DNA of 64,000 bases. Origin: Octopus vulgaris (Eukaryota). The notes under the pieces were generated by a model. That model was not told the origin of the DNA. It was given only the letters and a program-made list of their open reading frames with translations, and ran no database searches. Below, piece after piece: positions 11,556-58,905 of the stretch. The position numbers and the translations under genes are program-made. Every line of letters begins with the position of its first letter. Position 1 is the stretch's first letter. The stretch spans positions 132,184,001 to 132,248,000 of the forward strand of contig OX597818.1 in NCBI GenBank assembly GCA_951406725.2, in the 5' to 3' direction.

Positions 11556-11725
11556 TGTTCACACACACACTTACACAGAAATCTCAAATTCATTATTTTA
11601 ATTCCTGAGTTTTAATTTGCCTTAGGTTTTAGATGTTTTATTCATCTCATTTCTCTTTCATCTGATTTATACTACTAACACGAATCTATTTTTTTCTTTT
11701 TTCTCTCTCTCTTTCTCTTCCACAG

Positions 11726-12480
11726 GTGAGCGTCCCTATATCTGTGGTGCTTGTGGAGTACAGTACAGCCAGAGCCATAGCTTGAAAAGCCACATTACTA
11801 ATAAGCATGAGGGCAGAATGGGTTACTACATCAAAGAGAAACGGCACAGAGCTCACAGGGGGATAGGTTATATGACTGCTTCAGTCCCGGGTACTGATAT
11901 GCCCCTATTCAAGATACCACCAACTTCAGCTGTTCTCAATGCGAGTTTAACAGCTGGCCTTGACCTATCAAGTAAATTTTCTGAGCCTCTTAAGGCTTCG
12001 TTTCTTGATAATACTCTAAACCAACTAAAATCTAGTCCACAGCAACATAGTATCCTGAACGGCCACTCTTCACCCCACTGCGCTGATCTCCTGCAGAATC
12101 ATTGCCCACCGGGTCCTGGATTTCCGCCAGCACACCATCACGGGCCTCTTCAGTACCAGGCTTCAAGGGGAACTGTGAAGATGGAACCTTTAGATAACGG
12201 CTCCAACCAAGCCATGGATCTTAGCATACGGTCTTCACGTATTGGACATGGTCATGCTAATGGCCACAACCAGCAGTGTTCTGATGTGAATGGTCTCGAT
12301 GACTGTAAGCATGCTGAAAAATTAAAAACACTTCGTGGCAATGTAGTCCGTATGCTGGCAATTCTGGTTCCGAACTTGGATTTTGAAGAGAAGGGGATAA
12401 GTGCAGAGGGAGATTCTGTGGACGAACTTCTCCAGGATGTCATTGAAAGCAACTCCCCAGAAGAAGAACTTCCAGAGTAG
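11726..12480 (+). CDS. Terminal coding exon of a C2H2 zinc-finger protein (last finger, low-complexity linker, C-terminal helical domain); upstream finger exons not identified in the window
   Basis: Branch-like CTAAC and a long polypyrimidine tract end in cacAG (11724-11725). Read in phase 1 the exon gives (G)ERPYICGACGVQYSQSHSLKSHITNKH, a TGERP linker plus C-x2-C-x12-H-x4-H finger, and continues in frame with ORF 11782..12480 to TAG at 12478-12480. GC content is well above the flanks. Confidence 0.93.
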
Positions 12481-20951: not shown

Positions 20952-21185
20952 TCATATACACACAACAGATTAGACTGTTGGAAAAGAAAAGTTCATAACA
21001 TCGGGCTACAACAAGTAACGCTAGATGTCAAGAACCCTCCTAAATATCCTAGCTGTCCCTAATAACACTGTTTCCTGGAGCTGTACTAAACCGGGTTTTA
21101 TACCTGTTTCCTCTATCCATCTGTTCAAATCTTTAGGGATAGTTCCTAATGTACCTATAACTACTGGGATACATTTTACTACACT
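20952..21185 (-). mobile_element. 3' end of an R4/Dong-clade (restriction-like endonuclease) LINE
   Basis: Minus translation VKCIPVVIGTLGTIPKDLNRWIEETGIKPGLVQLQETVLLGTARIFRRVLDI* is the typical R4/Dong C-terminus. It is flanked by (TAA)n repeats, the known Dong target. Confidence 0.8.
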
Positions 21186-21191
21186 TTCCAT

Positions 21192-21241
<50 letters not shown>

Positions 21242-21806
21242 GGCAAAATTGTTAGAATACCAGATGAGATATCTTAAAGTATTTATTCTGTCACTCTCCA
21301 TACAATGTTCAATTACCACCAGGGCTTACCACGGTTGATAAGGCAAGTACCAGTCATGTACTGGGTGAGTTCAATGAACTGTAATCTATTACATATCATG
21401 GCAATGACTCAATGTAAAAAATAGTTACAACAGTTACACAACAACAACAATAATAATTACTGAGCTCGGATTTTATGGAACAGGTTTTTGAAAGGAAAAC
21501 ACTACATATAAAACATTCCAACCCGAAAGAAAAAAGAGAACAAGCAATAGAACCCTTTTGTGGGATCATGCTCGTATCTTCTGGTTCTAGTTGAATGCAC
21601 TTACTGCCAAAATGGTCAGATACCAGTAGATTAAATGCAGTCAACCATAATTTGATGGATATGAGTTCCAACTGATTATTTTTTGTTTGTTAGTTTTTTT
21701 CTCTCTTCTTTTTGAGATTAGACTTTCATGTATAGTGTGTTTTATGCATATAATATATAGGCTTACACCTACCCTCCATACATACACACACACATGCATA
21801 TATATA

Positions 21807-44950: not shown

Positions 44951-46208
44951 TGTATTCAAAAAGTATCTGACTTTACTTTTCCCACCAAAATAATGGCGTG
45001 TGACAAAATCCTTCAGGTGAGAGGTGACACCACGTTTCCTGCACATGCGGTAAAATTTTTGCACTGGTAGGCCACATCAGTTTCCTGCTGTTATGCCTAG
45101 AGTACAGACATGTAGTGTATATCGTTAGATTTTCATTTACATGCAAGATGACTGAACGCAAATTTTTGCTGAAAGCTTGGTGATACTCAAACTCAAACCC
45201 TCCAGTAGATTCAGCAGGCCTTTAGCTATGATTCTATGGGCAAAACTCAGATAAATGGGTTGTAAAACTGCTTCAAATATGGCCACACCTCAGTGGAGAG
45301 TGAGGCATGCTCTGGCAATCTATCCAGAAGCTAGCTGAAAGGAGGGACCGATTGAGATGGTGTGGCAAATAGTAATGGAAGACTGTCATGTAAGAGTTCA
45401 GGAAATTTCTCACGAAGTGGGAATAAGTACAGGTCATTGCATACCATTTTATTGGAGCATTTGTGCATGTGGAGAGTGCTGGCGAAATGCATCCCCAAAG
45501 TGCTGGCAGAGCAGCAGAAGTGACTGCATGGACATTGCTCAAGATATGCTGAACAGTGCAAACCACAATCCAGATTTAATGAAAACCATCATTACTGGTG
45601 ATGAGGTATGGATTTATGGTTACAACCCAGAAACCAAGTTACAGTTTTCCCAATGGAAGCGTTCATCATACCAAGGCCCTAAATGGCATAACAGATTTGC
45701 AGCAATGTGAACAAAGTGTTGACCTGTTTCTCTGACTCCTCTGGTATTGTGCATCATGAATATGCGCCAGAAGGCCAAGCAATCAATAAAGAGTACTACC
45801 TGGAGATTATACATTGTTTTCTTGATGCTGTACATCGAAAGTGGTTGGACATGTGAGCAGTGAAGAATTGACAACTTCACCACAACAATGCGCCTGCTCA
45901 TTATGCCCACATAATCCAAGCCTTACTGTTCAAGAGCAACACACCACTTGTTAGACATGATCCTTGCTCTCTTGGCTTGGCTCCATGAGACTTCTGACTT
46001 TTTGCCAAACTGAAAACCACACGAGGAAATTATTAGAGAAGCAGAGCTCAATATCATTCCAGAAAAGGTGTTCCAGAGTTGTCATCAGAAGTTGCAGAAC
46101 TGGTAGGATAAGTGTGTGAGTGCCTAAGAAGGTGATTAAATAAAATTTGTGAAATGTACAAAATTGTTTTTTATACCCAATGGTCAGATATTTTTTGAAT
46201 GCACTTCA
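44946..46208 (+). mobile_element. Full-length (~1.26 kb) decayed mariner (DD34D) transposon
   Basis: 26-bp TIRs TGAGATGTATTCAAAAAGTATCTGAC (44946) and GTCAGATATTTTTTGAATGCACTTCA (46183-46208) match at 22/26, with TA flanks inside (TA)n. Transposase motifs IITGDEVWIYGYNPETK, HHNNAPAH and a degenerate YSPDLAPCDF are broken by stops and frameshifts. Confidence 0.93.
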
Positions 46209-49697: not shown

Positions 49698-49865
49698 TGA
49701 AAATACCTCAAAGAAAAACATTGTACTCTTGAAATACTTATAATATTTTTTTTCCTTTTACTGTTTTCAATGATTCCCATGACTCATTGTCACCAATTCC
49801 ATTATTATGATTTTGAATTGTGAGCTTGAGTCATAGAGAATCTTTCGTTAACTGATTACATAACT

Positions 49866-50273
49866 GGTGCAGGAGTGGCTCTGTGGTAAGTAGCTTGCTA
49901 ACCAACCACATGGTTCCAGGTACAATCCCACTGCGTGGCATCTTGGGCAAGTGTCTTCTGCTATAGCCCCAGGCCGACCAATGCCTTGTGAGTGGATTTG
50001 GTAGACGGAAACTGAAAGAAGCCTGTCGTATATATGTATATATATATGTATGTGTGTGTGTTTGTGTGTCTGTGTTTGTCCCCCTAGCATTGCTTGACAA
50101 CCGATGCTGGTGTGTTTACGTCCCTGTCACTTAGCGGTTCAGCAAAAGAGACTGATAGAATAAGTACTGGGCTTACAAAGAATAAGTCCCGGGGTCGATT
50201 TGCTCGACTAAAGGCGGTGCTCTAGCATGGCCGCAGTCAAATGACTGAAACAAGTAAAAGAGTAAAAAGAGTA
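49866..50273 (+). mobile_element. tRNA-headed SINE with TTGGGCAAGTGTCTT core and internal (TA)/(TG) microsatellite
   Basis: A box GTGGCTCTGTGGTAAG, B-box-like GGTTCCAGGTACAATCCC, tail (GTAAAAGA)n; near-identical copy at 50594. Confidence 0.85.
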
Positions 50274-50593
50274 ACCATGGACGTCACCCCTATGGATGTT
50301 TTATAGTTACTTTCTTGATTGAGCCTGACTGTTGATCTCGGATTCCTCCACTCCTCCATTCAGTATCAATGTAAGAAAGCATCGTTGGCTCAGTTGAGCT
50401 CTCCCACTATCTCTTCACAATTCGCAAAGCTGCATTCCCATGACTTCTCTGAATCCCTGGCAAGGTTACTGAATGGGTGCTATGCCTTGCCAAAGGGCAG
50501 CCCATAACTATGCAGGGCATGGTCATCACTCTGTGAGGTATTTCCAAATACCCACATACCCAGATTTATAAAATACAAAATATTTATGAACAT

Positions 50594-50988
50594 AGAAGTG
50601 GCTGTGTGGTAAGTAGCCTGCTAACCATCCACATGGTTCCGGGTTCAGTCCCACTGCATGGCATCTTGGGCAAGTGTCTTCTGCTATAGCCCCGGGCCGA
50701 CCAATGCCTTGTGAGTGGATTTGGTAGACGGAAACTGAAAGAAGCCTGTCGTATATATGTGTGTGTGTATGTTTGCGTGTCTGTGTTTGTCCCCCTAGCA
50801 TTGCTTGACAACCGATGCTGGTGTGTTTGTGTCCCCGTTACTTAGCAGTTCGGCAAAAGAGACCGATGGAATAAGTACTGGGCTTACAAAAGAATAAGTC
50901 CCGGGGTCGAGTTGCTCGATTAAAGGCGGTGCTCCAGCATGGCCGCAGTCAAATGACTGAAACAAGTAAAGAGTAAAGAGTAAAGAGT
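50594..50988 (+). mobile_element. SINE, same family as 49866-50273
   Basis: Colinear, high-identity match along the whole length; tail (GAGTAAA)n. Confidence 0.85.
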
Positions 50989-57389: not shown

Positions 57390-57783
57390 ATATCATCATC
57401 ATCATCATCGTTTAACGTCCGCTTTCCATGCTAGCATGGGTTGGACGGTTCAACTGGGGTCTGGCAAGCCCGAAGGCTACACCAGGCCAGTCAGATCTGG
57501 CAGTGTTTCTACAGCTGGATGCCCTTCCTAACGCCAACCACTCCGAGAATGTAGTGGGTGATTTTATGTGCCACCGACACAGGTGCCAGACGAGGCTGGC
57601 AGACGGCCACGCTCGGATGGTGTTTTTTATGTGCCACCGACACAGGTGCCAGTCGAGGGTGGCAGACGGCCACGCTCGGATGGTGTTTTTTATGTGCCAC
57701 CGACACAGGTGCCAGATGAGGCTGGCAGTCGGCCACGCTCGGATATGGTATTTTCGGTGTTTTTCTTATGTGCCACCGACACA

Positions 57784-57785
<2 letters not shown>
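57390..57785 (-). mobile_element. RTE-tail retroposon with internal 63-bp minisatellite
   Basis: (CAT)n tail, GTTTAACGTCC..TTCCATGCT.GCATGGG and CTGGATGCCCTTCCTAACGCCAACC RTE-type 3' motif. Repeat units start at 57568, 57631, 57694 and (partial) 57770. Confidence 0.75.
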
Positions 57786-57824
<39 letters not shown>

Positions 57825-58084
57825 AGATAAGAAAATGGAGAAATACATCTAAATCAAATATCAATTACCAGATAATACTCAATCACATACTTTATTAAAC
57901 CACCACATAAGAGACTGTAGGGTTAAATATAAAAAGCAGAACAAATCAGTGTACATAAAGGAATGTACATAAAAAAGTGTAGATAAAAGAGTAATGTTGT
58001 ATAATAAGTAGAATATATATAAAAGAGAATATAACCCCTATCTCAATTTGTATATATATATATATATACAGACATACATATATA

Positions 58085-58905
58085 CAAGGTGCAGTGAATA
58101 TATCGTCATCTAAATTACCCAATAACGAAAATAACACTGGCATCTCATTTGCATAAAAATATATTAAAATACTAAAGACTAAATTTATTCAATGAAATCG
58201 CCACTGGCTTCAACCACTCTAAACAACTTCAGAATCTCCTGCAACTCTTCTGGAGAGTCTCCTTGTTTAAGTTGGTGAATGCTGCCATAATCCTTGCCTT
58301 CAGTTCATCTTTGGTGTTACCAGTTTTGTTGGTGTCTTGCTCAACTGCACCGCAAACGTAATAATCAAGGGGGTTGTGGTCTGGGGAGTTAGGTGTCCAG
58401 ATGTTGGGAAGATGTGGTCCCAGAAATTGTATGACAGCTGTGACTGAGTTCTCCTGCTTGTGTGGCATGGAGCAGAATCCTGTTGCTAGACATAGAGGCC
58501 TCCAGCAGCCACCCTCTTGACCCAGAACAGCACTACCTCCTTCAAGCACTTGATGTTGGCCTCCCTGTTGAGTTTAAGGCCATGTGGGAAGATGAATGGA
58601 AGCATAACGTCGCCATCGCTAGTGATCACTCCAAGCATCATGATGTAGACTGGATGTACATGTTTTGGAGATGCAGCAATCCAATGGATGTTCTGTGTGT
58701 TCATCATCTATCCATACTGGAGCTTTCAGTATGAATGCCAAGCAGTACAGTATGTTGTTTCCAAATTTCTGGCAGAGTGAATTGCATCATGGTGGTATTT
58801 TTCTCACAGACAATGCCCAACTGAGTAGATGACAAATTCAAAAACAAACAATGCACTTGCACAAAATTAGAAATATAGAAATGGTGACAACTTACCCATC
58901 ACATC

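Follow-up and report, generated by a model that had tools for sequence, protein, structure and literature searches.

The window, a 64-kb stretch of Octopus vulgaris DNA, carries the last coding exon of a zinc finger gene (Table 1). The exon, 11726-12480, is directly preceded by a polypyrimidine tract and an AG acceptor, and its stop codon occupies 12478-12480. From its start to the stop, the exon product consists of a C2H2 finger, ~170 residues of low conservation, a MORC-like peptide and a short acidic end. The upstream intron, of phase 1 with GT-AG ends and ~57 kb long, interrupts the H-T-G-E-R-P linker that connects finger 2 to finger 3; joining the upstream donor to the acceptor in the window restores H-T-G-E-R-P in frame. 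The exon encoding fingers 1 and 2 lies outside the window (G000:C5, about 132137034-132138516), and tblastn placed residues 13-513 of the Argonauta orthologue in an exon ~47 kb upstream of the window. Among named records, those of Octopus vulgaris and O. sinensis agree with the exon product at 250/250 residues and that of O. bimaculoides at 249. None of the runs listed from an index search is recorded as RNA. RNA reads fell on the stretch in runs X22 (n=11) and X23 (n=10), with none in run X21 (n=0), and an assembled contig of run X1 begins at 11727 and carries 1001 further upstream letters that are not on the stretch. The zinc finger gene is real and expressed. The databases label it myoneurin-like or ZNF777-like.

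A script scan of the 64-kb window found no other credible C2H2 exon, and Rfam and ARAGORN gave no match on the window. Frames at 45339-45707 (+) and 58232-58573 (-) have no Pfam match at E 0.01; by eye, they look like decayed pieces of mariner and Tc1 transposases. A short frame beside a trinucleotide run (21021-21255), also with no Pfam match, looks like the 3' terminus of an ORF from a non-LTR retrotransposon. Interspersed SINE-like repeats occupy 49834-50841 (-) and 57415-57895, with near-identical copies at two places, ~49.9 kb and ~50.6 kb; near 57.6 kb there is also a short tandem repeat; similar repeats occur within the introns of the MORC locus described below. At 12400 and 12500, RNA reads or a contig showed A>G differences, which could be alleles, species differences or A-to-I editing.

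Table 1. Features of the zinc finger exon and its surroundings, in window coordinates.
Feature	Position	Strand	Basis or remark
AG splice acceptor	11724..11725	+	3' end of the ~57-kb intron
Last coding exon of a 756-aa three-finger C2H2 protein	11726..12480	+	Orthologue matches, RNA reads
C2H2 finger 3, recognition helix QSHSLKS	11737..11808	+	Pfam; identical in 27/27 full molluscan orthologues
VKME, SUMO-consensus site	12175..12186	+	psi-K-x-E
AMDLS, CtBP-type short motif	12211..12225	+	Orthologue motif counts
Cys/His cap C-x(2-8)-C-x-H	12277..12312	+	Orthologue conservation; just ahead of the module
MORC3/4-type C-terminal module: amphipathic helix, Pro-led loop, acidic helix, terminal Asn	12319..12453	+	Profiles, AlphaFold2

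Pfam zf-C2H2 covers residues 4-27 of the exon product (E 0.031 alone). The full protein (P0212) matches C2H2 Pfam families only and is without the GHKL ATPase, S5 and CW domains that Pfam finds in octopus MORC3 (P0095). A search for relatives found 28, and the named ones are all molluscs (cephalopod, gastropod and bivalve). Of the 27 full orthologues, 26 have three fingers, with a longer linker separating the first from the others, and one partial orthologue model has a repeated finger 1. The conserved islands of the orthologue alignment are the three fingers, an N-terminal RRK..LEDI, a DL(S/T) motif and the tail; the remainder of the protein outside the fingers is mostly poorly aligned and of low complexity. 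In the N-terminal half of the molluscan orthologues (P0002 residues 246-260, outside the window) we also noticed a conserved RRK(P/Q)TLEDIVRR followed by DEVDG, a region that may combine a nuclear localisation signal with a short helix for cofactor binding. A wider profile search extended the orthologues to a chiton, to annelids (Capitella, Dimorphilus and Owenia) and to the brachiopod Lingula, their fingers 2 and 3 being related. Among the 101 new profile matches, many of them unnamed, 20 were looked up, and the named zinc finger carriers among these 20 are all lophotrochozoan. A set of ~30 unnamed two-finger matches was considered as a separate family and rejected: those displayed are exon-1 fragments of the same molluscan gene running into the intron.

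The sequence-only reading had likened the gene to KRAB zinc finger proteins and set it within the expansion of C2H2 genes in cephalopods. Neither idea was borne out. The array has three fingers only and the recognition helices of all three are identical in 27/27 molluscan orthologues; a single zinc finger carrier of the module was found in the octopus genome (five single-sequence searches, a lower bound), and orthologues occur in annelids and a brachiopod. Lineage-specific expansion clusters of cephalopod C2H2 genes and long-array zinc finger families are described in the available parts of PMC12513265 and PMC10547256, respectively. The gene studied here is one old, conserved lophotrochozoan gene outside the large cephalopod zinc finger expansion, and the finding does not explain silencing by the expanded cephalopod zinc fingers. 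The other statement of that reading, that the architecture is not that of a named gene, held: no Pfam model covers the module, and the orthologue names are automatic and inconsistent (myoneurin-, ZEB2-, Ikaros-, ZNF777- and ZNF366-like). In searches of the open-licence literature, no listed paper described the gene or a MORC-type tail on a zinc finger protein in its title or abstract, although supplements and subscription journals could do so, and six orthologue accession numbers returned no papers in the open-licence literature. The architecture is new, as a C2H2 factor with a captured interaction module, which is itself a known kind of protein.

The tail that ends the exon product was delimited as a 43-residue module, K198-E240 (12319-12447, the preceding E starting at 12316), which confirmed the terminal peptide in which a likeness to the MORC3 C-terminus had been seen. 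The module is extreme C-terminal in both the zinc finger protein and MORC3/4. We gathered MORC3 proteins with the octopus ATPase exon, blind to the tail; among the 120 of 628 matches that were listed, 26 under 590 aa were dropped, leaving 94, in 76 of which the tail could be aligned; most of the other 18 look, judging by name and terminus, like fragments, fusions or proteins with another ending. A MORC3-only tail HMM built from 75 sequences, with no zinc finger input and human MORC3 not in the set, scored the window tail at 37.4 bits over 41/41 positions and 29/29 orthologues at 19-37 bits. The maxima in the controls were -2.2 for 31 unrelated C2H2 proteins, 3.9 for reversed orthologues and 8.3 bits for 2000 shuffles (1890 scored). 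The reverse profile, made from 13 zinc finger tails, gave 50 bits for amphioxus MORC3, 24 for mammalian MORC3 and <12 for many molluscan MORC3s, and MORC proteins from which the tail had been removed, their coiled-coil regions still present, scored <=0.8 bits. Direct comparison with the window tail showed 23/43 identities (53%) in an ungapped alignment to amphioxus MORC3 and 19/41 for dugong and jerboa MORC3; the octopus zinc finger and octopus MORC3 tails are identical at 17/37 positions.

Searching 1.84 billion representatives with the zinc finger tail profile returned 110 matches at E 0.001 or better, which were sorted by pattern into 25 of molluscan zinc finger type, 48 of other zinc finger type, 31 MORC-like and 6 tandem. 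Five of the MORC-like matches, retrieved at E 7e-4 or better, carry Pfam CW with S5 or GHKL, and the other 26 are mostly fragments; the best BLAST match of the 31 was a MORC in 24 and a zinc finger protein in 7. The 48 matches of other zinc finger type include a finger in 18 cases, and the best match was a zinc finger orthologue in 48/48. Pfam found no family on the tail at E up to 10, and no Pfam family is common to more than one of the 27 alignment members at the tail. The claimed likeness to MORC3 was thus upheld by reciprocal profiles, by hhalign of the zinc finger tail against the MORC3 tail (98.1%, E 7.5e-14) and by the MORC proteins retrieved from this collection, and homology of the tail to the MORC3/4 C-terminus is secure. 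Convergence of two short amphipathic helices could be argued from how short the module is, from the first match obtained with one sequence in the octopus genome, which was not significant (E 0.877), and from the many molluscan MORC3 tails that stay below 12 bits with the zinc finger profile. Against convergence stand the reciprocal tests with decoys, the loss of signal once the tail is removed from MORCs, the retrieval of five proteins with Pfam CW, S5 or GHKL, the terminal position in both families and the gap-free amphioxus match; we consider convergence very improbable and largely refuted.

Own-genome counts come from five single-sequence searches and are lower bounds, since distant carriers may escape such searches: only two of the five detected the tandem gene. 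Together they turned up three carriers of the module, namely the zinc finger gene, MORC3 and a tandem frame. The last 66 residues matched two places in the genome, themselves and a place on G000:C24 whose E value is that of the first match given above and is not significant alone. There lies the final exon of a gene whose S5 and CW exons are found upstream in the same orientation and whose ATPase exon gives 92 bits to MORC3 and 45 to MORC2; this gene is the octopus MORC3/4 gene (G000:C24:15375939-15399000 (-), loci L002 and L013-L015). Its last exon carries a SIM-like VIDLTDED motif and, ahead of the tail module, a long linker of low complexity. By eye, the module lies ~220 low-complexity residues behind the likely coiled-coil region. 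The tandem carrier, a 783-codon open frame (G000:C13, about 9884251-9886600 (-), loci L025/L026), has two diverged copies of the module in tandem at its end and scores 68 bits with the tandem-class profile and 6-12 with the other two. It is related to the six unnamed proteins of the tandem class (P0309, P0328, P0330, P0340, P0341 and P0367), on which Pfam found no family at E 1e-4; P0340 has a single N-terminal C2H2 finger. The tandem proteins are an uncharacterised family. Another MORC gene, which matches S5 and CW (G000:C1:86432466-86438860 (-), loci L005 and L009), is probably of MORC1/2 type. A match on C21 (E 6.7) was rejected as chance, and matches on C9, C28 and C4, with E 1-10 and internal stops, were likewise set aside.

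AlphaFold2 predicted the zinc finger tail as a helix (2-25), a loop and a second helix (42-54), with pLDDT 82 and pTM 0.59, and the octopus MORC3 tail also as two helices and a loop (pLDDT 84); the likeness of the two folds is a comparison of predicted secondary structure. The loop, second helix and end of the zinc finger tail carry a net charge of -12, and the loop and hydrophobic positions are near-invariant across molluscs. A sequence search of solved structures with the tail alone returned only arginine repressor at E 1.1, Foldseek against the PDB nothing at E 0.001 or better, and VIA-align over 48,161 chains a best Z of 5.1 (rmsd 2.9, 52 aligned), with no match above background. The ESM Atlas was uninformative on the tail (best 0.76). 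A relation to bHLH is unsupported, as the many bHLH rows at Z 3.3-4.5 are background for helical models, and these searches are no proof of a new fold either.

In the eight molluscan genera with both proteins (28 pairs), the mean identity of the tail core is 86% for the zinc finger protein and 44% for MORC3, which indicates that the zinc finger tail is under a constraint not common to its supposed partner MORC3. The module has 43 residues in the zinc finger tail and in amphioxus and hemichordate MORC3, and 37-38 in molluscan MORC3, the molluscan MORC3 tails being 5-6 residues shorter, in the loop, than amphioxus, hemichordate and some cnidarian ones. Their identity to the window tail is 22-46%. 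The lophotrochozoan MORC3 tails form a clade of their own (99/91) from which the zinc finger tails are excluded, and the capture was therefore not a recent one from octopus MORC3. Trees in which the zinc finger tails were held with lophotrochozoan MORC3 were not rejected (p-AU 0.43), nor were trees in which all zinc finger tails were held together (p-AU 0.45), a grouping that is itself not demonstrated; the taxon labels of unnamed rows in these trees (P0116, P0155, P0160, P0361, P0364 and several 'ZNFother') were guessed from sequence likeness. The tail trees do not date the capture because they have only ~50 columns. We infer that the module was captured once, from a MORC3/4 gene, before the lineages of molluscs, annelids and brachiopods diverged.

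Further conserved elements lie upstream of the module. AMDLS sits 36 residues ahead of it, and a (P/A/G)-led DL(S/T/R) motif is present in 28/29 molluscan orthologues. The molluscan motif is mostly A(I/M)DL(S/T/R) rather than canonical PxDLS, and its R-ending variants are weak matches; the canonical PxDL[ST] occurs in 33 of the 48 other zinc finger-type matches. Overall, the DLS motif was found in 56/73 zinc finger-type matches versus 0/31 MORC-like matches, 1/94 full MORC3s and 2/31 unrelated C2H2 proteins. Non-canonical ALDLS is a proven CtBP site according to the available part of PMC11187106. Within the Cys/His cap, a Cys directly before helix 1 is found in 29/29 orthologues, a His two residues on in 27/29 and a second, upstream Cys in 29/29, and a Cys within 8 residues before the module is present in 71/73 zinc finger-type versus 1/31 MORC-like matches; the cap is a possible metal site. 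VKME fits psi-K-x-E, the SUMO consensus, and [VIL]KxE within 260 aa upstream of the tail is present in only 13/29 orthologues.

The reading that we prefer, and whose chances we judge to be about even, is that the protein represses genes at specific sequences, recruits CtBP by way of its (P/A)xDLS motif and pairs with itself through the captured MORC tail. The three fingers would bind one fixed DNA site and the (P/A)xDLS motif would bring CtBP, while two tail modules would pair as a small bundle of helices, which a metal bound by the Cys cap may close. Such pairing would let a three-finger protein read a longer site and present two CtBP motifs. The evidence that we count for self-pairing is the tandem class, in six proteins and the G000:C13 frame, and the amphipathic two-helix prediction. 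Two tandem copies in one chain are the pattern expected of a fused homodimer module, and the tandem class hints for this reason that the module may work as a pair; the tandem copies may instead bind two sites on a partner. MORC C-termini in general are described as dimerisation regions (section 42 of PMC11879086), and MORC3 is reported to homodimerise through a coiled coil in a review whose available part does not give the residues (PMC8627505). The residue-level data concern human MORC2, for which the available part of PMC13189624 names 901-975 as sufficient for dimerisation and 1004-1032 as a separate IDR-binding domain that binds an Arg/Pro-rich disordered region. The module matched human MORC2 marginally, at 987-1028 with E 0.51 and in another search at 959-1018 with E 0.006. 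The MORC2 segment that corresponds to the module is mostly the IDR-binding domain and lies outside the main dimer core, which argues against self-pairing, and the zinc finger protein has the Cys cap, not a long coiled coil, ahead of its module. The earlier proposal is supported in that the tail is a homologue of the MORC3/4 C-terminus, whereas its further step, that the tail is the MORC oligomerisation coiled coil, is conjecture: the weak match to MORC2 falls at 987-1028 and the dimer core, in the part of PMC13189624 available, is 901-975.

Alternatively, the tail may pair with the MORC3 tail, so that the fingers would bring the MORC3 ATPase to a fixed DNA site, with no KRAB-scale expansion. 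Paralogous dimer modules often cross-pair, as in SCAN, BTB and bZIP proteins, both genes are present in one genome, and the two octopus tails have in common a hydrophobic pattern, a predicted shape and the identities counted above. The octopus MORC3 module, lying as far past the coiled coil as it does, could also be free to bind. The zinc finger tail, however, barely changes, while the molluscan MORC3 tails are shorter in the loop, are only 44% identical to one another and exclude the zinc finger tails from their clade; that the two tails differ so in conservation and in the length of the loop speaks against MORC3 being the main partner. Moreover, the known MORC3 partners in the available part of PMC8516933 are engaged through SUMO and the CW domain. 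We consider pairing with MORC3 quite unlikely. It is also unlikely, in our judgement, that the tail binds a third partner or a basic disordered region in the manner of the MORC2 IDR-binding domain, which would pull the protein into repressive nuclear bodies. The module does align with the MORC2 end including 1004-1032, and deletion of the IDR-binding domain abolishes MORC2 condensates (PMC13189624, section 8); the net charge of the tail and the poorly aligned, low-complexity chain outside the fingers would suit such a role. Yet the MORC2 match is marginal, the near-invariant loop and hydrophobic positions exceed what weak charge-based sticking needs, and the MORC3 C-terminal region formed no droplets alone according to the available part of PMC6614601 (data not shown there). 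A broader proposal, which we regard as rather doubtful, is an unnamed pairing code common to the three lophotrochozoan classes (MORC3, the zinc finger factor and the tandem protein), in which cross-pairing would load the MORC ATPase sequence-specifically and the tandem protein would act as a decoy or scaffold. If cross-pairing were true, it would provide a MORC silencing route independent of HUSH, KRAB-TRIM28 and small RNAs.

Whichever partner the tail has, the locus marks an uncharacterised, strongly conserved lophotrochozoan transcription factor that is misnamed in databases. The last 45 residues of MORC3/4 are usually lumped as 'coiled coil'; they lack a Pfam model, and none of the solved structures searched covers them. 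Their occurrence in two further protein classes makes the module a domain in its own right, mobile and unnamed. The zinc finger tail and the tandem pair are small, highly conserved and easy to express and solve, and through them binding by the MORC3 C-terminus becomes testable.

Among known systems, the extreme C-terminus of MORC3/MORC4 (the last ~45 residues) is the closest, with homology over the whole module, the same terminal position and a predicted helix-loop-helix. The octopus module differs in being fused to C2H2 fingers without GHKL, S5 and CW, in being preceded by a Cys/His cap and in being far more conserved than the molluscan MORC3 tail. The end of CC3 and the IDR-binding domain of human MORC2 (1004-1032; PMC13189624; CC3 structure PDB 9KQL) show the weak profile match at 987-1028 and are, in the available parts of these sources, the only part of the module family with residue-level experiments that we found; the MORC2 dimer core has no counterpart in the zinc finger protein. 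Few separated fingers, a long poorly conserved chain and a PxDLS-type motif recall the CtBP-binding C2H2 repressors (ZNF217/219/516/536, ZEB, MECOM/PRDM16 and RREB1). The nearest Atlas clusters by language-model features were ZNF536, PRDM16, MECOM, ZEB2, RREB1 and ZNF219, which bind CtBP; this is a lead only, with 0.96 for all C2H2 rows against 0.97 for the first-ranked ZNF536-like cluster. Of the 20 of 101 tail matches looked up, none was a named member of these families, and the best solved relatives were generic C2H2 arrays, none of them close. KRAB zinc finger proteins and FiNZ-ZNFs (PMC10547256) likewise combine fingers with a short acidic helical module linked to silencing biology; they have hundreds of young paralogues, long fast-evolving arrays and an N-terminal effector, whereas the octopus gene is old and single, with three invariant fingers and a C-terminal module. 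The octopus tail is unrelated in sequence to the domains of SCAN-, BTB- and ZAD-type zinc finger proteins, is C-terminal and showed no expansion, and its pairing is hypothetical. These C2H2 proteins acquired a small self-association domain, and if the tail pairs, they provide the best functional analogy.
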